NCBI RefSeq assembly: GCF_053078305.1
Contig: NZ_CP166879.1
Length of the DNA: 64,000 bases
Reading direction: 5' to 3' (one strand)
The notes under the pieces were generated by a model, which was not told where the DNA came from, made no database searches, and saw only the letters and a list, made by a program, of their open reading frames with translations. This document shows, piece after piece, positions 38,355 through 47,465 of the stretch (position 1 is the first letter of the stretch; each line of letters opens with the position of its first letter). The position numbers and the translations under genes are program-made.

Positions 38355-38368
38355 TCTATTGAAGAATG

Positions 38369-38399
38369 CCGGATACGAATGGTTTCGTGTCGTATCCGG
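38369..38399 (+). terminator. Stem-loop downstream of yicI (possible terminator)
   Basis: 10-bp perfect inverted repeat ccggatacga / tcgtatccgg with 11-nt loop; no strong T tract. Confidence 0.35.
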
Positions 38400-38648
38400 T
38401 AAATAATCTCACATCTGGTAATAAATATTTCTTCCATCGTATTTGCGAGCATGATCACGATTATTCATCGCGAAAATGTGATCTGTGCTGAAAAATATCC
38501 CTTAACCGCCTTGCTTTGTTTTATCACTGTCCGGATTACGGACAGATTTTAGTATTGTTGTGAAATTATTCTGCTTTATATTTACCCTCAGAGATGGCAA
38601 CTGAAGCTCTTCCTCATGGGGCTTCTTAATCTGTGATAAGGGTAAAAA

Positions 38649-40202
38649 ATGCAAATGATTACCTCGCGACAAAACAGATTATTACGATTCCTTTTACCTC
38701 GAAGGGAATATACGACTATTGTTAAGATTGCCGGCTATTTAAATGTTTCGGAAAAAACCATTCAACGTGATTTACGTTTACTTGAGCAATGGCTGGGGCA
38801 ATGGAGAATAAATGTTGAGAAGCGTGCTGGCGCGGGTGTGATGTTAAGCGCGGAGAATATTGCTGATTTGCTGCATCTTGATCATTTGTTGGGAGCAGAA
38901 TGTGAAGAGATTGATGGTGTAATGAATAATGCCAGGCGCGTTAAAATAGCGTCGCAGTTATTAAGTGAAACACCGAATGAAACGTCGATCAGTAAATTGT
39001 CAGAACGCTACTTTATCAGCGGAGCCTCTATTGTTAATGACCTGAGAGTAATTGAGTCCTGGCTTGCGCCGTTGGGGTTATCGTTGATCCGCAGCCCAAG
39101 TGGTACGCATATTGAAGGTAGTGAAGGGCAAGTCCGACAGGCAATGGCATTACTGATTAACAGCATTATTAACCATAATGAGCCGCAAGGTGTCGTGTAT
39201 TCACGTCTGGATCCCGGAAGTTATAAAGCATTAGTCCATTATTTTGGAGAAGAAGAGGTGTTATTTGTCCAGTCATTGTTACTGGATATGGAAAATGAAT
39301 TAAGTTGGTCTTTGGGAGAACCTTATTACGTTAACATTTTTACTCACATCCTTATTATGATGTATCGCAACACGCACGGGAATGCGTTATCAAGAGAAGA
39401 AGATCAAACCAGGCAATATGATGAAAATATCTTTAATGTTGCCAGTCAGATGATTCATAAGATAGAACAACGAATTGCACATACATTGCCCGATGATGAA
39501 GTCTGGTTTATTTATCAATATATCATTTCATCAGGTGTGGCGATTGATGGACAAAAAGATGTTAGCATTATTTCACATATGCAGGCCAGCAATGAAGCGC
39601 GTCTTATTACCTGGCGTTTAATTACGGTATTCAGTGACATCGTGGACTGCGATTTTAGTGAAGACAGCGCATTATATGATGGCTTATTGGTGCATATTAA
39701 ACCGCTGATTAACCGACTAAATTATCGTATTCATATCCGTAATCCATTGCTGGAAGATATTAAAGCAGAATTAGCGGATGTCTGGCGGTTGACGCAATAT
39801 GTGGTGAATCAGGTATTTAAAACCTGGGGTGAGAATGCAGTGAGCGAGGATGAAGTGGGTTACCTGACCGTTCATTTTCAGGCTGCGATGGAGCGGCAAA
39901 TTGCCCGTAAACGTGTATTACTGGTCTGTTCAACCGGAATCGGAACTTCGCATCTACTGAAAAGCCGTATTCTGCGAGCATTTCCTGAATGGACGATTGT
40001 TGATGTTATTTCAGCAGCGAATTTATCACAGGTTTTGCCTGACAATATCGAACTGATTATTTCGACCATTAATTTGCCTACAGTCACTATGCCGGTCGCT
40101 TATGTTACCGCTTTTTTTAATGATGCCGATATTAAGCGGGTCACTGAAATGGTGATTACGGAAAAATTACATCATGCGACGTCTCGGGTCGTTGAAATTT
40201 AA
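38649..40202 (+). CDS. PRD-domain transcriptional regulator (BglG/MtlR/LicR family) with N-terminal HTH and PTS EIIB-like domain
   Basis: 517-aa ORF; N-terminal HTH (TIVKIAGYLNVSEKTIQRDLRLLEQ); EIIB(Gat)-like Cys motif (VLLVCSTGIGTSHLLKS); lies upstream of the PTS genes. Confidence 0.75.
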   Translation: MQMITSRQNRLLRFLLPRREYTTIVKIAGYLNVSEKTIQRDLRLLEQWLGQWRINVEKRAGAGVMLSAENIADLLHLDHLLGAECEEIDGVMNNARRVKIASQLLSETPNETSISKLSERYFISGASIVNDLRVIESWLAPLGLSLIRSPSGTHIEGSEGQVRQAMALLINSIINHNEPQGVVYSRLDPGSYKALVHYFGEEEVLFVQSLLLDMENELSWSLGEPYYVNIFTHILIMMYRNTHGNALSREEDQTRQYDENIFNVASQMIHKIEQRIAHTLPDDEVWFIYQYIISSGVAIDGQKDVSIISHMQASNEARLITWRLITVFSDIVDCDFSEDSALYDGLLVHIKPLINRLNYRIHIRNPLLEDIKAELADVWRLTQYVVNQVFKTWGENAVSEDEVGYLTVHFQAAMERQIARKRVLLVCSTGIGTSHLLKSRILRAFPEWTIVDVISAANLSQVLPDNIELIISTINLPTVTMPVAYVTAFFNDADIKRVTEMVITEKLHHATSRVVEI

Positions 40203-40228
40203 TGTCAGAATTTTATGAGGTATGACGA

Positions 40229-40699
40229 ATGGACATAACAAAAATCCTGAATACGAATCGCGTTATTTTAGATATGCAAGCGACGAATAAAGCGGAGGCG
40301 ATTGAAGAATTAACTAATCTTCTCAAAAAAGATGGTGCGATCGATTGTCGGGAAACCTTTATTAAAGATGTCTGGCAGCGCGAAGCGGAAGGCTCGACTG
40401 GTTTTGAAAATCATATTGCGATCCCGCATGGTAAATCTTCTGCGGTAATTAATACTACGCTGGCAATTGGCCGTACCCGCCAGGATATTCCCTGGGAAAC
40501 GCTGGATGGTAGTAGCGTGCGCTGTATTATTTTATTTGCGGTACGTCTTGAAGATCAAAATACCACCCATATCCGTTTACTTTCCCAGGTCGCGGGCGCG
40601 CTGGCGGATGATGACATCATAGAACAATTGTTAGTTGAGACGAGTCCGCAAAAAATCATTGATCTCTTTAGTCAGTATGCACAATCCGATGTCTGCTAA
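40229..40699 (+). CDS. PTS EIIA component (fructose/mannitol-type, EIIA-2 family)
   Basis: 156-aa ORF with phosphorylation-site His motif FENHIAIPHGKS. Confidence 0.8.
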   Translation: MDITKILNTNRVILDMQATNKAEAIEELTNLLKKDGAIDCRETFIKDVWQREAEGSTGFENHIAIPHGKSSAVINTTLAIGRTRQDIPWETLDGSSVRCIILFAVRLEDQNTTHIRLLSQVAGALADDDIIEQLLVETSPQKIIDLFSQYAQSDVC

Positions 40700-40716
40700 A
40701 TAACAGGGAGTATGTC

Positions 40717-41031
40717 ATGAATATTGTCTGTGTTGCCGCCTGTACGGCGGGTATTGCTCATACCTATATTGCTCGTGAAAAGTTAATCAAAGGAGCAAAA
40801 GCTCTGGGCCATACCATTAAAGTTGAAACCCAGGGAACCATTGGTACAGAAAATGAATTACAGGCGGCAGATATCTCTGCTGCTGACGTCGTGATTCTTG
40901 CTGTAGATGTGAAAATAAAAGGAGAAGAACGCTTCACCAATAAACGTATTGTGCGAGTAAAGACAGAGATCGTCATTAAATCGCCCGTTCAATTTCTTGA
41001 AAAGGTCGAAAAATCACTGGGAAACAAATGA
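40717..41031 (+). CDS. PTS EIIB component (fructose-like IIB)
   Basis: 104-aa ORF with active-site Cys near N-terminus (MNIVCVAACTAGIAHTYIA). Confidence 0.8.
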   Translation: MNIVCVAACTAGIAHTYIAREKLIKGAKALGHTIKVETQGTIGTENELQAADISAADVVILAVDVKIKGEERFTNKRIVRVKTEIVIKSPVQFLEKVEKSLGNK

Positions 41032-41055
41032 TCCTTATACTGGAGGGATCTTAAT

Positions 41056-42147
41056 ATGAAAGACAATAAAATTCCGGTTTCACAGGAAATTAAAAAACAT
41101 TTATTAACCGGCATCTCGTGGATGATACCCCTTATTGTGGCCGCCGGGATATGTATTGCGTTGGGGCAAGTTCTTGGCGGTACAGATGTTGGTGAAAAAA
41201 CAGGAACAATCCCGTGGATGCTTAATCAGATTGGCGGCTGGGGAATGGGGCTGATTGTGCCGCTGATTAGCGCGGCAATTGCCTATTCTATTGCCGATCG
41301 TCCCGGATTTGCCCCGGGTCTGATTGTCGGCTTTCTCTGTGGGCAAATCCATACCGGATTTATTGGCGGTATGTTGGGTGGTTTCCTGGTGGGCTACACC
41401 ATTTTGCTACTTAAACGCTATATCCGCCTGCCGCAGTCGATGCAAGGACTCATGCCAATCATGGTGTTGCCGGTATTAAGCACCATTATCGGTGGGCTGT
41501 TAATGATGACGCTGATTGGTAAACCCATCGCCTGGTTACAAGAAGCACTGATTCATTTGCTCGAGTCGATGCAGGGCGGATCGCGCTTCCTGATGGGGGC
41601 CATACTTGGCGCGATGGCAACCTTCGATTTCGGTGGTCCGGTCAACAAAACCATGTCGCTGTTTTCCGATGGCTTGCTGGTCAGTGGCGTCTACGGACCA
41701 GAAGCCGTGAAATTTGTCGGCTCAATCATCCCTCCGTTTGGCATCACACTTTCGTTCTTACTGACACGCCATAAATACACCCGTGCGGAGCGCGAGGCGC
41801 TGAAAGCCGCGTTTCCGATGGGGATCTGCATGATCACTGAAGGAGTCATTCCGATCGCCGCGCGTGACCTGCTGCGAGTAGTGGGATCTTGTGTGGTGGC
41901 ATCGGCGGTCGCGGGCGGCTTAATCATGGTGTGGGGCGTGGAGAGTCCGGTTCCGCATGGCGGCATGTTTGTTGTGCCTCTGTTCACCCATCCTCTGCTG
42001 TTTTGCCTGGCGCTGGGTATAGGCACGGTGATTTGTGGCGTGATGCTTTCACTCTGGAAGAAACCGGTAACGGAACGCGACGAAGAGTTTGACGAACTGA
42101 GCGATCAAAAGCTGAAAGATGAAGAGATCACTTTCACCCTCGAATAA
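41056..42147 (+). CDS. PTS EIIC permease (fructose-like IIC)
   Basis: 363-aa polytopic membrane ORF immediately after EIIB. Confidence 0.8.
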   Translation: MKDNKIPVSQEIKKHLLTGISWMIPLIVAAGICIALGQVLGGTDVGEKTGTIPWMLNQIGGWGMGLIVPLISAAIAYSIADRPGFAPGLIVGFLCGQIHTGFIGGMLGGFLVGYTILLLKRYIRLPQSMQGLMPIMVLPVLSTIIGGLLMMTLIGKPIAWLQEALIHLLESMQGGSRFLMGAILGAMATFDFGGPVNKTMSLFSDGLLVSGVYGPEAVKFVGSIIPPFGITLSFLLTRHKYTRAEREALKAAFPMGICMITEGVIPIAARDLLRVVGSCVVASAVAGGLIMVWGVESPVPHGGMFVVPLFTHPLLFCLALGIGTVICGVMLSLWKKPVTERDEEFDELSDQKLKDEEITFTLE

Positions 42148-42158
42148 CCGGAGGCCCT

Positions 42159-43010
42159 ATGTTTGCCGATATGAAAAGTATGGTGATGAAAGCCTGGCAT
42201 GAACATTACGCCTTGCTGGCGATCAACTGTATGAATCTGGAAAGTGCTTACGCAGCTATCCGCGTGGCGGAGAAGAATCGCGCTCCGATCATTCTCAATC
42301 TCTATCAGGGGCATCTGGCACATTTTCCTGCACCCGTCGCGGCGGCAGTGGTTAAAACGCTCGCGGAATCTGCCTCAGTACCGGTCACTCTGGCGCTTGA
42401 TCATGGCAAAAATCCGGACTGTATTCGTCAGGCGTTTCGTGCTGGTTTCAGCGGATTAATGATTGATGCTTCTGCTTTTCCCCTGGAGGAAAACGTGCGC
42501 CAGACCAGGGCGGTGGTGGAACTCGCCGCCAGCGCGCAGCTCTGCGTGGAAGGCGAACTGGGCCATCTGGCAGATGCGCCGCGTTACGACCAGGCCGCCA
42601 ATGCAGACATGATGACGCAACCCACTGATGTGGAACCGTTTATCGCGCAGACAGGCATTGATCTACTGGCTGTCTCTGTGGGTACGGCGCACGGCATGTA
42701 CGCGCCTGGTGTTGTACCTGCTATTGATTTTCAGCGTCTGGCGGAGATTTTCCACTGCTCGAGCGTGCCTCTGGCATTACATGGCGGTAGCGGTACGCCG
42801 TTCGATCAGCTCCAGCTCTGTACGACGCTGGGGGTAGCAAAAATCAACGTGGGGGCGGCCATTTTTGAACGGGGGAAATCCGCGCTCCTGCATACCCTCT
42901 GTCACGATATATCCATTGAACTGGTGGACGCGCTGAAAGCTATGGAACTGGCCTTCGAAGAAGCGATTACACCGTATTTACAGGCGAGCGGCTCTATCGG
43001 CAAAGCCTGA
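42159..43010 (+). CDS. Class II ketose-bisphosphate aldolase family protein (GatY/KbaY/FbaA-like), variant N-terminal motif
   Basis: 283-aa ORF with LALDHG, VSVGTAHG and LALHGGSG motifs (Zn-ligand His positions); canonical GAFNV substrate motif replaced by LAINCMNLE. Confidence 0.7.
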   Translation: MFADMKSMVMKAWHEHYALLAINCMNLESAYAAIRVAEKNRAPIILNLYQGHLAHFPAPVAAAVVKTLAESASVPVTLALDHGKNPDCIRQAFRAGFSGLMIDASAFPLEENVRQTRAVVELAASAQLCVEGELGHLADAPRYDQAANADMMTQPTDVEPFIAQTGIDLLAVSVGTAHGMYAPGVVPAIDFQRLAEIFHCSSVPLALHGGSGTPFDQLQLCTTLGVAKINVGAAIFERGKSALLHTLCHDISIELVDALKAMELAFEEAITPYLQASGSIGKA

Positions 43011-43090
43011 TTCATTTTCTGTCATGGCCTTTATGCCAGTGCAATAACGCACCGGCAGGGCGGACTACACGCTGAAACTGGAGATTTAAC

Positions 43091-43951
43091 ATGTTAGTTT
43101 CGATGAAAGAATTACTGCAACCTACCCGCCAGCACGGCTTTGCCATTGGCGCATTTAATGTGGCGGATAACTGTTTCCTTCGCGCAGTCGTGGATGAAGC
43201 AGAAGCGACAAATACTCCGGCGATTATTGCCATCCATCCCAGCGAACATGATTTTGTGGGCGATGCCTTTTTCGCTCACGTTCGCGAAATTACCCAGCGT
43301 AGTCCAGTCCCGTTTGTACTGCACCTCGATCATGGTGCCTCTGTAGAGCATGTTTTGCGTGCGATTCGCTGCGGATTTACCTCAGTAATGATCGACGGTT
43401 CGCTGCTGCCGTATGAAGAAAACGTGGCGCTGACCGCAGAAGTGGTTCGCCTCGCTCACGCGGTTGGCGTGTCGGTTGAGGGTGAACTGGGAACCATCGG
43501 ACAAACAGGAACGTCGGTAGAAGGTGGTGTTTCACAAGTGACCTACACAGATCCGGCGCAGGCCGCCGATTTTATTGCTCGTACAGGTGCCGACACACTG
43601 GCTGTGGCGATTGGTACAGCGCATGGCATCTATCCAAAAGGGATGCAACCGAAGCTGCAAATGAACATTTTGCGCGACATTGCCGGACGTATTGATATTC
43701 CGCTGGTACTACACGGTGGTTCGGCAAACCCGGACGCGGAGATTGCTGAATCAGTTACGCTCGGCGTCGGCAAAATCAATATCTCCAGCGATATGAAATA
43801 CGCCTATTTCCAGAAAGTGCGTGAAATTCTCGCTAAAGAGAGCTGGTGGGACCCGAACGTCATCTATCCGGATGCGATTAACGCGGCGCGGGAAGTCATT
43901 CGCCACAAAATGAAACTGTTCGGTTCGCTCGGTAAAGCATCACTGTACTAA
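43091..43951 (+). CDS. Class II ketose-bisphosphate aldolase (tagatose/fructose-bisphosphate aldolase family)
   Basis: 286-aa ORF with canonical GAFNV, LHLDHG, VAIGTAHG and LVLHGGS motifs. Confidence 0.75.
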   Translation: MLVSMKELLQPTRQHGFAIGAFNVADNCFLRAVVDEAEATNTPAIIAIHPSEHDFVGDAFFAHVREITQRSPVPFVLHLDHGASVEHVLRAIRCGFTSVMIDGSLLPYEENVALTAEVVRLAHAVGVSVEGELGTIGQTGTSVEGGVSQVTYTDPAQAADFIARTGADTLAVAIGTAHGIYPKGMQPKLQMNILRDIAGRIDIPLVLHGGSANPDAEIAESVTLGVGKINISSDMKYAYFQKVREILAKESWWDPNVIYPDAINAAREVIRHKMKLFGSLGKASLY

Positions 43952-43959
43952 GCCAGAAG

Positions 43960-43980
43960 GGCGGGGTGACCCGCCTTTTA
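43960..43980 (+). terminator. Short GC stem-loop plus T4 between aldolase and kinase genes (possible intra-operon attenuator)
   Basis: ggcggg-gtga-cccgcc followed by tttta. Confidence 0.35.
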
Positions 43981-43998
43981 CGCAACAAGGAACGAGAT

Positions 43999-44931
43999 AT
44001 GCACTATCTGGGGTTGGATATTGGTGGGACCAAAATCGCCGCCGTCGTCATGGATGCGCATGGCTGGGAGATTCGCCGTTACCGCTGCCCGACGCAAAAG
44101 TCGACATATCAACAATTTGTCTCATGCGTTGTGGCACTTATCGAGCAGATTAGGCGGGACGTTCAACGACCGATGCTGACAGGGATCGCCTTACCCGGCA
44201 GTATCTCGCCACTCACTGGCCTGATTAAAAACGCGAATATTCAGGTGATTAACGGTCATGCGTTACAGGCTGATTTGCAGCAATTGCTTGGGCAACCGGT
44301 GGTGATAGCCAATGATGGTAACTGTTTCGCGCTATCAGAAGCTTGCGACGGTGCCGGGCAAGATTATGACGTGGTATTTGGTATTACGCTTGGTACGGGC
44401 TGCGGCGGTGGCATTGCCATCAAGCAACGACCGTTTATAGGGGCCTGGGGAAATGCTGCCGAATGCGGTCATATCACGTTGCCAGGCTATACGGAGCAGG
44501 AAGATGGTCCATCAGTCAGTTGCTATTGCGGCAAACACAACTGCGTGGAGTCGTTTGTTTCCGGCAGCGGTTTTAGTGAACGCTATCAACAGATGACTGG
44601 TAACTTGCTCACTCCTGCGGCGATTGTCACCCTGGCACAACGTGGTGATGCTTGTGCCATGCAGCAGGTGGCACGTTTTCGCCAACAGCTTGCCCGCACG
44701 CTCGCAACCATCGTTAATGTTGTTGACCCTGGCGTGATTGTGATCGGCGGCGGGCTTTCGAATGTGGAACTGCTTATCACCGATCTGAACGCAGAAGTCG
44801 CTCCACTGGTTTTCACCGATCAATTCACCACTCCCATTGTAAAAGCACAGCACGGCGACAGTAGCGGAATGCGTGGCGCTGCCTGGCTTGCTATGCGCAA
44901 CGGAGAAGCCAATGAAACGTTCACAAATTAA
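43999..44931 (+). CDS. ROK-family sugar kinase
   Basis: ORF 43966..44931; likely start MHYLGLDIGGTKIAAV (ATG 43999, RBS aaggaacgag); ROK glycine-rich ATP motif and Cys-rich zinc motif (CYCGKHNC). Confidence 0.75.
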   Translation: MHYLGLDIGGTKIAAVVMDAHGWEIRRYRCPTQKSTYQQFVSCVVALIEQIRRDVQRPMLTGIALPGSISPLTGLIKNANIQVINGHALQADLQQLLGQPVVIANDGNCFALSEACDGAGQDYDVVFGITLGTGCGGGIAIKQRPFIGAWGNAAECGHITLPGYTEQEDGPSVSCYCGKHNCVESFVSGSGFSERYQQMTGNLLTPAAIVTLAQRGDACAMQQVARFRQQLARTLATIVNVVDPGVIVIGGGLSNVELLITDLNAEVAPLVFTDQFTTPIVKAQHGDSSGMRGAAWLAMRNGEANETFTN

Positions 44932-45592
44932 TTATGTTATTGATAAAGCACATGCCATTGCGCAGACCTTCCGCGTTTGTTTGCCAGAGTTCGCCTATTT
45001 TACGGTGGATGACTGGCTGCAGCGGGAACGGGATAACTGGCAAGAAGTGGTCGACTTACAGCTCGGTTGGGATATCACCGATTTTGGTCGTGGTGATTTC
45101 AACCAAACGGGACTAACACTGCTAACGATGCGCAACGGCGCGCTGGGGTCGGCGGCATATCCAAAACCGTATGCTGAGAAAATGTTGCAGATCCAACAAG
45201 ATCAGCAGACTCCCTGGCATTTTCACACCCACAAAATGGAAGATATCCTCAATCGGGGCGGTGGAGACTTATGCATGCAGTTGGCCTGGGCCAACGAAGC
45301 CAGTCTCTGTGATGATCAACGAGTCATTACCGTGAGTGTTGATGGTCAGCGGCGTACCATGAAACCTGGTGAAACGCTGGTGTTAAAGCCGGGGCAGGGC
45401 ATTTGCCTGCCGCCGCGTCTGTATCATCGCTTCTGGGCGGAAAAAGCGTTTGTTCTCGGCTGGGAAATTTCGATGGTAAATGATGACCAACACGATAACT
45501 ATTTTCTTGAGCCGGGAGGACGTTTTCCTGCGATAGAAGAAGATGAACCGGTGAAATGGTTATTGTGCAGTGAGTATGGAATTTTGCGCTAA
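44912..45592 (+). CDS. Cupin-fold sugar isomerase, D-lyxose/D-mannose isomerase-like (YdaE family)
   Basis: ORF 44873..45592; probable start MKRSQINYV (44912) overlapping the kinase 3' end by 20 nt; metal-binding His cluster WHFHTHK. Confidence 0.6.
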   Translation: MKRSQINYVIDKAHAIAQTFRVCLPEFAYFTVDDWLQRERDNWQEVVDLQLGWDITDFGRGDFNQTGLTLLTMRNGALGSAAYPKPYAEKMLQIQQDQQTPWHFHTHKMEDILNRGGGDLCMQLAWANEASLCDDQRVITVSVDGQRRTMKPGETLVLKPGQGICLPPRLYHRFWAEKAFVLGWEISMVNDDQHDNYFLEPGGRFPAIEEDEPVKWLLCSEYGILR

Positions 45593-45601
45593 TAACGGGG
45601 A

Positions 45602-45637
45602 ACGCTAGCGCTGATATCCGCTAGCGTCCTTATTTTT
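45602..45637. terminator. Hairpin terminator at the junction of the sugar island and convergent yicH
   Basis: acgctagcg-ctgatatc-cgctagcgt followed by ccttattttt. Confidence 0.55.
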
Positions 45638-47345
45638 ACTGCGCCGGCTCCGTCGACGTAACTTCACCACTGGAAACTACGCCCGCATTCATGGTTTGAG
45701 TCACTTGCTGCTTTGCGGCGTTCACGGCATGCAATTGCCCGCTAACCGTAGGTTTCAGCGGGACATTGGCCTGAATATCGCCACTGGCGGTAAGCTGAAT
45801 ATTGCCGTCGCCAGTCAACGGTAATTCAGGCCATCCCCAATGTTGCAAAATATTCACCGGCACACCGCGTCCATTCAGGCTGATATGGGTCTGACGTTGT
45901 GGCGTTTGTGAAACACTGGCGGTGGCTTCCAGAATGCCTTTTTCAGTAAATGCACTCAGTTCGCTGATATTCACCGTGCTGCTGTTGGCGGTTAGCGCCA
46001 GCGATGGACGACGGACATCAACACGATTAAACGTCGCGGCGGCGGCATTCAGATTCGCCGAACCACTCCAGACGCCCCATTTATGATCGGTGACCAGCGT
46101 CAGGTTGGCACCGTAACCATCGAGCGCGGTGAGCTGCCACGGGAAGTCAGGGTCGATATCAATGATCAGATTGCGGCTGGCGCTAAATCTCTTCAGTTGC
46201 AGGCTGTTTAACCAACCCGGTGTCGTTTCCATCCACAACTGTTGCCAGTTTTTCGGCAAGGTATATTCCAGCCCGGCAATTGCCGCATCATCAAGGAGTA
46301 ACGTTTTCCCGTCACGCAGCCAGTTCCCTGACGTTCTGACCATACCCCCTTCCCAGCGGCTGGTGAACTGGCGCAGCGCTACGCCCTGCGGGGAAAATTC
46401 CGCGTTTATAATCGGGTCAAATAAATGCAGCGAACCATAAATGAACTCGCTAGCGTTCATCGACAGTTTGCCTTCTTGTGTCTGCCAGTCATCTTTACTG
46501 AAGGTCATGTTGCGCAAGCTGAGATCGAGGTCGGTCACCGCCCAGTCCGGACCTTGCAGACGAGCATCGATCACTTCCAGGCGACCAATCTGCAACGACG
46601 GGACAGAGCGTAATGGTGCAAAGAAGTCGGTTAGCGATTTTTCGCTTTGTAGACGGATATCCGCCATGCGCAGATTTTCCACTTGCCAGCTGCCGTCGGC
46701 GTTACGCTGCGCGTTTCCGGTTAATGTCCCGCGCGCGATGTCGGCACCCAGGTTAGTCAGCGTAACGCGATCGTTATCAATACTGCCTTCAATCAGTACA
46801 TTGGTGGCAGGAACATCATTGAGCGAAAGCGATCCGGCACTAAACTGAATCTGCGCCTTCGTACCCAGCACTTTACCGGCTTCTGGTGACCACGGAACCA
46901 CGCCGCCATTTACCCGCTGCGCGCTCAGTTTCCATTCGCTATTCGGGCTATTAAACGCCATATCACGCAGTTGCAGACGATCGGCTTTGAACGGTAGCGG
47001 CGCGGTCTGGTCGGTGAGATTCAGCGTTCCGTTTTCCAGCAGGATGGTATCGACATGGCGTGGTTCGGTCAGTTGCCGACTACTTAGCGCAATGTCGACA
47101 CTTTTGGCCACCAGGGTCGCGGGCTGGCCATCACGACCAAACGTGACGTTCTCCAGCACAATATGAGATGGCGCGGAAAAACGGTGATCCATCGCCCCGA
47201 AGGCCAGATGATAGTCGCTATTCTCGGAAACCCATGCGCTGATATGTTCTGCTCCCCAGCGGGTTTGCAGAAGAAAATAGAGGCCAGCGATCACCACTAA
47301 CAGAGCGATGAGAATGTAGAGAAGCAGCTTCCCAATAAATTTCAT
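45636..47345 (-). CDS. yicH: AsmA-family protein YicH
   Basis: ORF 45636..47369; conserved form begins MKFIGKLLLYILIALLVVIAGLYF (N-terminal TM anchor). Confidence 0.85.
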   Translation of the reverse strand: MKFIGKLLLYILIALLVVIAGLYFLLQTRWGAEHISAWVSENSDYHLAFGAMDHRFSAPSHIVLENVTFGRDGQPATLVAKSVDIALSSRQLTEPRHVDTILLENGTLNLTDQTAPLPFKADRLQLRDMAFNSPNSEWKLSAQRVNGGVVPWSPEAGKVLGTKAQIQFSAGSLSLNDVPATNVLIEGSIDNDRVTLTNLGADIARGTLTGNAQRNADGSWQVENLRMADIRLQSEKSLTDFFAPLRSVPSLQIGRLEVIDARLQGPDWAVTDLDLSLRNMTFSKDDWQTQEGKLSMNASEFIYGSLHLFDPIINAEFSPQGVALRQFTSRWEGGMVRTSGNWLRDGKTLLLDDAAIAGLEYTLPKNWQQLWMETTPGWLNSLQLKRFSASRNLIIDIDPDFPWQLTALDGYGANLTLVTDHKWGVWSGSANLNAAAATFNRVDVRRPSLALTANSSTVNISELSAFTEKGILEATASVSQTPQRQTHISLNGRGVPVNILQHWGWPELPLTGDGNIQLTASGDIQANVPLKPTVSGQLHAVNAAKQQVTQTMNAGVVSSGEVTSTEPAQ

Positions 47346-47465
47346 GGTCTTCCATCCCGTGAAATGCACATAAGGGAGTTATGCACGATTTACGCGCAAT
47401 CCTCAAGGCGGGAATGGTGAAAGAGGTGAGACTGCGGCGGTAATTATCTTACCGCCGCCAGTGAA

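Follow-up and report, generated by a model that had tools for sequence, protein, structure and literature searches.

Related systems described to date

The frz operon reportedly comprises, in the gene list of Rouquet et al. 2009, genes for a Mga-type activator, PTS-Fru IIA, IIB and IIC components, two class II aldolases, a ROK kinase and a cupin. In strain BEN2908 (GR27), the yicH..yicI region measures 7283 bp and contains this operon. The genes lmo2133-2138 of Listeria have explicitly been named a homologue of the E. coli operon (PMC2996996). By its description, the lmo2133-lmo2138 locus of Listeria monocytogenes likewise combines a fructose-like PTS, two class II aldolases and a regulator, and it corresponds to the minimal six-gene core found in Firmicutes in the present analysis; unlike frz, it is described without a ROK kinase and a lyxose isomerase.

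SqiA (acting on sulfofructose-1-phosphate) and YdjI (acting on octuluronate-1-phosphate) are enzymes that convert a ketose 1-phosphate to DHAP and a non-phosphorylated aldehyde. In the GatY/GatZ and KbaY/KbaZ systems, a class II aldolase gene is located beside a second TIM-barrel gene of related fold within a PTS-linked sugar operon. GatZ and KbaZ belong to another family, in which the metal site is changed (His, His, Glu) and Cys replaces Asn24, and they are now reported to act as a C4 epimerase, which is more than the role of a mere chaperone (PMC11907403).

The frz locus and its gene content

In the window (the whole stretch of DNA that was analysed, 64,000 nucleotides), an insert at 38355-45635 (7281 bp, eight genes) was identified between yicI and yicH. 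The two class II aldolases, here termed Ald1 and Ald2, are the products of its fifth and sixth genes. The features of the locus are as follows:

38649..40202, + strand: PRD-containing Mga/BglG-type regulator with a C-terminal PTS-IIB-like domain, the frz activator (Pfam HTH_11, Mga, two PRD and PTS_IIB)
40229..40699, + strand: PTS fructose-family enzyme IIA (PF00359; TIGR00848 fruA IIA, 127 bits, above cutoff)
40717..41031, + strand: PTS fructose-family enzyme IIB (PF02302; TIGR00829, 100 bits, above cutoff)
41056..42147, + strand: PTS fructose-family enzyme IIC, the permease (TIGR01427 PTS_IIC_fructo, 311 bits, above cutoff)
42159..43010, + strand: Ald1, divergent class II (Zn) aldolase-family paralog, 283 aa (PF01116)
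43011..43090, + strand: Ald1-Ald2 spacer of 80 bp, holding the ribosome-binding site of Ald2 (read from the sequence)
43091..43951, + strand: Ald2, class II aldolase, 286 aa (PF01116; NCBIfam subfamily NF006042, PRK08185)
43999..44931, + strand: ROK-family sugar kinase (Mak/NagK-like), accessory gene (PF00480, E=1e-73; start from RefSeq)
44912..45592, + strand: cupin D-lyxose/D-mannose isomerase, accessory gene (PF07385, E=8e-87)
45602..45637, + strand: terminator-like hairpin and T-run at the end of the operon (9-bp stem with six G-C pairs, then CCTTATTTTT)

The regulator is labelled 'BglG family transcription antiterminator' in RefSeq. A terminator scan of the spacer between the aldolase genes found no terminator, while the terminator-like hairpin at the end of the operon begins 10 nt past the isomerase stop codon. 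The best NCBIfam match of the ROK kinase is the fructokinase model NF007108 (319 bits, below cutoff), and its gene is overlapped by 20 bp by the start of the isomerase gene. The cupin isomerase is a paralog of the solved isomerase of E. coli O157 (3KMH/3MPB, 218 bits). No gene of the GatZ/KbaZ type was identified in the operon using Pfam profiles and RefSeq annotation.

The insert occupies the same chromosomal site as the frz operon of strain BEN2908 (between yicH and yicI) and is of the same size (~7.28 kb). Its gene set, by Pfam/NCBIfam assignment, equals the published list, and no locus-level difference was seen. On site, size and gene content, the insert carrying both aldolases is identified as the operon published as frz in extraintestinal pathogenic E. 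coli. The aldolase gene pair is already known as part of frz; what is new here is its comparison at residue level and across phyla.

Identity and annotation of the two aldolases

The sequence-only reading of this DNA described 42159-43951 as encoding tandem class II aldolase paralogs that share the class II fold, and the profile analysis agrees. Both ORFs are intact, lie on the same strand and are preceded by ribosome-binding sites (GGAGG, 8 nt upstream, for Ald1; GGAGA for Ald2). Their products are 33% identical and match PF01116 (F_bP_aldolase, curated cutoff 25.5 bits) from end to end, with 250 bits (E=3e-74) for Ald1 and 304 bits (E=2e-90) for Ald2. Solved class II aldolases were matched at E ~1e-40 (Ald1) and ~1e-58 (Ald2), and GatY and KbaY show 32-34% identity to the two proteins.

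RefSeq names Ald1 a 'class II fructose-bisphosphate aldolase' and Ald2 a 'ketose-bisphosphate aldolase'. Ald1 scores below every NCBIfam cutoff, and the only NCBIfam models passed by Ald2 are TIGR00167 and NF006042 (525 bits, cutoff 405), the latter bearing the title 'hypothetical protein'. The NCBIfam equivalog cutoffs for FBA, GatY and KbaY were reached by neither protein.

The motifs that first drew attention to the pair are located as originally read, with GAFNV at residues 20-24 of Ald2 and LAINCMNLE at residues 20-28 of Ald1, and the Zn-ligand His motifs LDHG, GTAHG and LHGGS are indeed kept in both proteins. The description of the Ald1 motif as altered is correct for two exchanges (F to I and V to C) but overstates the change, as the functional Asn is the same. 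In the active-site alignment this Asn is invariant, and a bona fide aldolase, FbaA of E. coli, itself reads AVNC; the motif of Ald1 is therefore no evidence for the auxiliary subunit that had been proposed from it.

Each protein possesses a signature of its own. That of Ald1 consists of L-A-I-N-C, Y49-Q50-G-H52, H55 and N-V-G-A-A; that of Ald2 consists of G-A-F-N-V-A-D, H-P-S/T-E, loop Glu144, N-I-S-S-D, D-P-N and an [AS]-L-Y tail, its residues being invariant in 71/71 orthologues. Loss of the phosphate-site residues T233/E234 (NVGAA) was considered as a trait of the Ald1 family and rejected: Ald1 of Firmicutes reads NVGSD or NVGAD, and NVGAA is therefore limited to Enterobacterales.

Catalytic residues and selection

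Residues N24, D82, H83, E132, E134, H180, H208, S211, K228 and N230 are invariant in all orthologues aligned (74/74 for Ald1 and 71/71 for Ald2), and orthologues of Ald1 retain all Zn ligands and catalytic residues even at 35-38% overall identity. With the roles of residues at the metal and catalytic site taken from crystal structures of SqiA (PMC10665668; also PMC11907403), both window proteins possess the Zn ligands His83, His180, His208 and Glu134 together with Asp82, Asn24 and Asn230. By this alignment, the metal site, the catalytic Asp/Asn and the phosphate site of the DHAP half are complete in Ald1 as well as in Ald2. Both genes are under purifying selection, with dN/dS values of 0.05-0.13 for Ald1 and 0.006-0.04 for Ald2.

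A glutamate of the mobile beta5-alpha7 loop (Glu182 of Ec FbaA, Glu142 of the Hp enzyme) is the proton shuttle in class II aldolases. The loop Glu is found in 70/71 Ald2 proteins; in the same column, as far as an uncertain loop alignment allows, Ald1 proteins have Asp or Glu in ~82% of cases and otherwise Asn, Ala or Gln. Under the same uncertain alignment, a Glu anywhere in the loop was found in only 26/73 Ald1 proteins. The statement that Ald1 is without a catalytic loop acid was nevertheless softened, as Asp144 of E. coli Ald1 occupies the column of the Ald2 Glu.

Distal substrate pocket

Pocket positions are given in KbaY numbering, with contacts assigned by alignment to solved homologues. 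Ald1 carries Asn at 27, Tyr or Leu at 50, Gln at 51 and Gly at 232, where Ald2 carries Asp, His, Pro and Ser. At position 53, His occurs in 73/74 Ald1 proteins and Glu in 71/71 Ald2 proteins. Position 257 is Ala, Val or Pro in Ald1 and Asn in 71/71 Ald2 proteins. Ald1 and Ald2 thus diverge at family-specific, strongly conserved positions predicted to face the far half of the substrate.

It has been described that the distal (C6) phosphate is held by a Ser/Thr at KbaY position 50 and by Arg257 of the partner subunit (Ser49 and Arg280 in the Hp enzyme) (PMC10665668). GatY and KbaY possess Thr50 and Arg257 for this phosphate. Both residues are missing from Ald1 and Ald2: the Ser/Thr50 and Arg257' pair was absent throughout the ortholog alignment (74 Ald1 and 71 Ald2 proteins). 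Loss of Arg257 also marks the non-bisphosphate SqiA aldolases (Ala257; PMC10665668), and the partner-subunit Arg is likewise lost in YdjI, which shows no DPR motif in the alignment made here. SqiA and YdjI have the fold and the metal/DHAP site in common with Ald1 and Ald2; the latter two differ in forming clades of their own, in other pocket residues and in belonging to a PTS operon rather than a kinase-based one.

No kinase of the 1-phosphofructokinase type was identified in the core module. Given this, the missing second-phosphate residues and the ketose 1-phosphate route proposed below, the 'bisphosphate aldolase' names in the databases are probably over-annotations.

Distribution and evolution of the pair

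Among 5426 complete E. coli genomes, 1604 (~30%) carry the full-length pair, including ST131 and Nissle. Beyond E. coli, the order regulator-IIA-IIB-IIC-Ald1-Ald2 is kept in 70+ species from Escherichia to Enterococcus, Pediococcus, Streptococcus and Sebaldella, and also on metagenome contigs. Ald2 is located directly downstream in 68 of the 70 species-level loci with a true Ald1, the other two loci ending just after Ald1. Where a locus reaches far enough upstream, the module almost always opens with the regulator gene; no regulator ORF was detected in one full-length locus (L051). The genes for the ROK kinase and the isomerase are present in part of the species only, and divergent forms of both recur beside the pair in distant phyla. 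The protein-database search with Ald2 returned close orthologues only, solo Ald2-type enzymes being outside its reach.

One locus of the Erysipelotrichaceae (L075) seemed to encode an Ald1 without Ald2. Its protein does not have the AINC signature and belongs to another operon, alongside genes for an FSA/transaldolase and for a dehydrogenase, and it was left out of the Ald1 counts.

In the tree, the Ald2 clade was recovered in 200/200 bootstraps and the Ald1 clade in 164/200, and the topologies within the two clades are parallel. The duplication that gave rise to Ald1 and Ald2 is ancient. Neofunctionalisation, the other possibility raised by the sequence-only reading, is supported by what was found, namely two ancient, co-inherited clades, each with invariant distal-pocket residues of its own.

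Proposed function and alternatives

With a probability of roughly 0.55, and judged from sequence comparison, Ald1 and Ald2 are co-inherited, catalytically competent and non-redundant class II Zn-dependent enzymes that form the catabolic core of frz. The fructose-family PTS would deliver a ketose 1-phosphate. With its extreme conservation and its mobile-loop Glu, Ald2 would be the main retro-aldolase, yielding DHAP and an unphosphorylated aldose. Ald1, which evolves faster, presents Tyr/Gln/His where Ald2 presents His/Pro/Glu and is not strict in its loop acid, may catalyse a second, distinct reaction of the same pathway. Ald1 could cleave a different stereoisomer or substrate, or it could supply Ald2 through a 4-epimerisation by retro-aldol/aldol chemistry. 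In the species that have them, the D-lyxose/D-mannose isomerase and the ROK kinase would salvage the free aldose. Against a two-enzyme reading, a single aldolase should suffice for one ketose phosphate.

A more specific and speculative form of this proposal, to which only a small likelihood is given, is that the PTS-Ald1-Ald2 core constitutes an undescribed pathway in which the ketose 1-phosphate is never made a bisphosphate. Ald1 would then feed Ald2 either as a C4 epimerase working by retro-aldol/aldol chemistry or as an aldolase that accepts a second stereoisomer, and the products would be DHAP and a free lyxo/manno aldose salvaged by the isomerase and the ROK kinase. The substrate of the pathway could be a higher-carbon ketose from plants. 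In the literature on frz, lmo2133/2134 and related PTS-aldolase systems, neither a characterised substrate nor a characterised tandem pair was found, the mentions being at operon level only.

There is some chance, if a modest one, that the pair is instead, much as the sequence-only reading suggested by analogy with GatY/GatZ, an obligate hetero-oligomer in which Ald2 is catalytic and Ald1 a stabilising or regulatory partner, or possibly a mixed tetramer with both subunits active. Strict adjacency and co-inheritance across phyla are equally expected of an obligate complex, and class II aldolases form dimers or tetramers, the active site of one subunit being entered by residues of its partner (PMC10665668). 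The asymmetric rates of the two genes (Ald1 exceeds Ald2 in dN by a factor of 2-3, and by a factor of 12 in the closest comparison), the loop general base that is not strict in Ald1 and an operon without a GatZ/KbaZ-type gene are consistent with such a complex as well. It would, however, be unusual for a non-catalytic partner to keep all metal ligands and catalytic residues in 74/74 orthologues. Unlike GatZ and KbaZ, Ald1 is a regular member of PF01116 whose His3/Glu site is canonical and whose Asn24 is invariant; it falls outside the GatZ/KbaZ family, whose members are themselves reported to be epimerases (PMC11907403). Furthermore, an Ald2-like aldolase stands alone, with no Ald1 partner, in a sister PTS operon. 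AlphaFold2 modelling of a fused Ald1-(G4S)6-Ald2 with a 12-species paired alignment folded the two barrels well (pLDDT 83.8) but placed them relative to each other with no confidence (pTM 0.51); an Ald2-(G4S)6-Ald2 control reached pLDDT 65.3 and pTM 0.46 and missed even the expected homodimer, so that the modelling weighs neither for nor against a heteromer.

Simple redundancy, in which two independent aldolases of equivalent activity act on the same substrate and are kept by dosage or chance, is improbable. Both proteins have complete class II catalytic sites, and databases call both of them ketose- or fructose-bisphosphate aldolases; a fixed, ordered pair in 68/70 species of three phyla at 33% identity is nevertheless not expected of redundant duplicates, and each family has invariant pocket residues of its own. 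The idea that E. coli can dispense with Ald1, or that the gene is decaying there towards a pseudogene, is largely refuted. No other catalytic gene of the operon evolves as fast, and Ald1 occurs as shortened or frameshifted alleles of 171-258 aa in some E. coli assemblies; but its dN/dS of ~0.08 is far below 1, essentially every one of the 1604 pair-carrying genomes (identity at least 98.5%) has it at full length, and its catalytic residues are invariant across phyla.

Biological significance

In extraintestinal pathogenic E. coli, the frz operon has been linked to fitness, to adhesion and to the invasion of cells. The frz homologue of Listeria monocytogenes is lineage-specific. No new kind of system is revealed by the present comparison. 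It carries a caution, in that the 'bisphosphate aldolase' names of both genes are probably wrong. Distinct distal pockets in two apparently catalytic proteins, together with the lack of a second-phosphate site, would narrow the candidate substrates of the pair to ketose 1-phosphates.

Genomic context of the aldolase pair

The yicI-yicH interval of the E. coli chromosome holds, in the window, a 7281-bp insert of eight genes, all on the same strand. The features are as follows:

36036-38354, + strand, yicI, one border of the insert
38649-40202, same strand as the other seven insert genes, PRD/Mga-type regulator
40229-40699, PTS fructose-family IIA
40717-41031, PTS fructose-family IIB
41056-42147, PTS fructose-family IIC
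42159-43010, Ald1, full-length class II aldolase (PF01116)
43091-43951, Ald2, full-length class II aldolase (PF01116)
43999-44931, ROK kinase (RefSeq start, ATG at 43999)
44912-45592, cupin D-lyxose/D-mannose isomerase
45602-45627, terminator-like hairpin, 3' of the isomerase gene
45636-47369, - strand, yicH, other border of the insert

The tandem class II aldolases proposed in the sequence-only reading were confirmed, its boundaries (42159 and 43951) being the exact start of Ald1 and stop of Ald2. Against solved class II aldolases, Ald1 gave E-values of ~1e-40 and Ald2 of ~1e-58; they are 33% identical to each other. A terminator scan identified none between their genes. The longest ORF of the ROK kinase begins at 43966 (GTG), as opposed to the RefSeq ATG, and its gene overlaps that of the isomerase by 20 bp (44912-44931), which suggests translational coupling. 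The isomerase (226 aa) is not the solved E. coli O157 isomerase (3KMH/3MPB) itself but its paralog, matching it at 218 bits.

The aldolase pair is real but not new, since it belongs to the known frz operon. Annotated E. coli chromosomes carry the insert at 100% identity, and the pair occurs full-length at at least 98.5% identity in 1604 of 5426 complete E. coli genomes, ST131 and Nissle among them. The frz genes of Rouquet et al. reportedly already included "two type II ketose-1,6-bisphosphate aldolases". Literature searches returned no biochemical characterisation of Ald1 or Ald2. In BEN2908, the 7283-bp yicH-yicI region contains the "frz" carbohydrate operon (7227 bp), described in a 2026 genome paper which, citing Rouquet et al. 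2009, gives it a role in fitness, adhesion and internalisation; a 2021 review listed frz under unknown or not clearly known function. Listeria lmo2133-lmo2138 (PTS-Fru and two class II aldolases) has been published as a frz homolog (PMC2996996).

Upstream of yicJ/yicI, window positions 12000-34000 carry the air/eaeX inverse-autotransporter adhesin, the eilA (HilA-like) regulator, setC and SipB/SipD-like type III translocator genes. This stretch is strongly mosaic (GC 0.59-0.62 at 14-20 kb, 0.37-0.39 at 22-30 kb), and at least 80% of it was found in only 399 of the 5426 genomes.

Conservation across species

Ald1-specific peptides were scanned against one genome per species, giving 71 loci in which ORFs were called and compared with the eight proteins of the window. 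One, L075 (1355-6134, an Erysipelotrichaceae MAG), was dropped as a different PTS-linked operon: IIC is followed by a single class II aldolase with the motif A-A-N-C, not A-I-N-C, and after it come an FSA/transaldolase-family protein, an NAD-binding protein resembling 6-phosphogluconate dehydrogenase, and an ORF of 430 aa that matches nothing in Pfam. Ald2 lies directly downstream of Ald1 in 68 of the 70 true loci; the remaining two stop just past Ald1. The order Reg-IIA-IIB-IIC-Ald1-Ald2 is found among Enterobacterales in genera including Escherichia, Citrobacter, Klebsiella, Kosakonia, Pantoea, Erwinia, Pectobacterium and Brenneria, beyond them in Marinilactibacillus, Enterococcus, Pediococcus, Lactobacillus, Streptococcus and Sebaldella, and again in metagenome contigs where Ald1 is 49% identical.

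Neighbour-joining recovered an Ald2 clade (200/200 bootstraps) and an Ald1 clade (164/200), whose parallel internal topologies point to one ancient duplication followed by co-inheritance. Ald2 is always far more conserved than Ald1 (81% versus 59% identity to the window proteins in Pantoea, 60% versus 38% in Enterococcus). Both are under purifying selection, with dN/dS of 0.05-0.13 for Ald1 and 0.006-0.04 for Ald2, dS being unsaturated in the closest comparison only. In some E. coli assemblies Ald1 is damaged (alleles P0004, P0037, P0038, P0039 and P0046), with a frameshift after GTA, a 25-residue internal deletion removing part of beta3, or calls of 171-181 aa truncated at the N-terminus; a minority of strains may retain the operon but no longer have a functional Ald1.

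Accessory genes and a sister operon

The ROK kinase and lyxose isomerase are variable accessories, missing in Pantoea, Erwinia, Pectobacterium and several Firmicutes, and divergent versions reappear beside the pair in distant lineages: a ROK kinase in one Enterococcus and one Lactobacillus, and a short-form isomerase in Marinilactibacillus, Sebaldella and one metagenome contig. The short isomerases (L072 6474-6956, Marinilactibacillus; L081 11874-12410, Sebaldella) have 160-178 aa, with matches restricted to the cupin core of PF07385. In the metagenome contigs L008/L009 (1-3470 and 11356-12300), a type I mannose-6-phosphate isomerase lies near the pair, 3' of the ROK kinase. Immediately upstream of their frz-like module is a sister operon, Reg-Ald2like-IIABC, whose PRD regulator contains a IIA domain and whose PTS IIABC is a single fused protein; its Ald2-like aldolase (53% identical) lacks an Ald1 partner.

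Active sites and proposed function

The sequence-only reading had taken the LAINC of Ald1, where Ald2 has GAFNV, as an altered substrate-binding motif. Alignment with E. coli GatY, KbaY, YdjI and FbaA makes this a weak argument, as only Phe->Ile and Val->Cys have changed. L-A-I-N-C is an Ald1 family signature (Ile in 73/74 orthologs, Cys in 74/74) and not a sign of lost function, because the Asn, which stabilises the catalytic Asp, is retained, the archetypal FbaA itself reads A-V-N-C, and it is GatZ that has Cys in place of Asn (PMC11907403).

With residue roles taken from SqiA crystal structures in KbaY numbering (PMC10665668), active-site mapping showed the catalytic core to be intact: N24, D82, H83, E132, E134, H180, H208, S211, K228 and N230 have no exceptions in either family. 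The two differ in other residues, those of the distal pocket included. Position 50 of Ald1 is Tyr or Leu and position 257 is Ala, Val or Pro, alongside Gln51, His53 and Gly232; Ald2 has, nearly all invariant, Asp27, His50, Pro51, Glu53, Ser232, Ser233, Asp234, Asn257 and an [AS]-L-Y tail. In true bisphosphate aldolases the side chains at 50 and 257 hold the distal phosphate; both families lack them, as SqiA lacks Arg257 (PMC10665668), and Ald2 has acidic residues there. In the mobile loop, where the alignment is uncertain, 70/71 Ald2 have the Glu; ~82% of Ald1 orthologs have Asp/Glu in its column (Asp144 in the E. coli protein), the rest Asn, Ala or Gln. A variant phosphate site, NVGAA, is confined to enterobacterial Ald1. 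The Ald2 C-terminus (43937-43951) ends in K-A-[SGDE]-L-Y (Leu 97%, Tyr 100% of 71 orthologs), prolonged in Firmicute orthologs (L072-L080) by a tail such as QGMDPWRGQLL; Ald1, GatY, KbaY and FbaA have no counterpart of this candidate active-site lid or subunit contact.

An obligate Ald1-Ald2 hetero-oligomer would fit the strict co-occurrence and asymmetric evolutionary rates, but is rather unlikely, since the catalytic site of Ald1 is entirely conserved, the sister operon has its Ald2-like aldolase alone, and GatZ/KbaZ, the precedent for an auxiliary partner, has been reinterpreted as a C4 epimerase (PMC11907403). Fused-chain AlphaFold modelling of the heterodimer argues neither for nor against it, since the homodimer control failed too. 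The reinterpretation of GatZ/KbaZ, with reported C4 epimerisation by class II aldolases, leaves a slim chance that Ald1 is epimerase-like. Plain redundancy of the two enzymes and pseudogenisation of Ald1 are both unlikely.

Neofunctionalisation, also raised in the sequence-only reading, is supported on better evidence than the motif. We favour, at a probability of roughly 0.55, two active metalloenzymes of distinct specificities acting on a PTS-delivered ketose, which would be monophosphorylated because no 1-phosphofructokinase-type kinase is encoded in the core module. The main retro-aldolase would be Ald2, with Ald1 performing a second, non-redundant step, and the isomerase and kinase, in loci that have them, would salvage the free aldose product.
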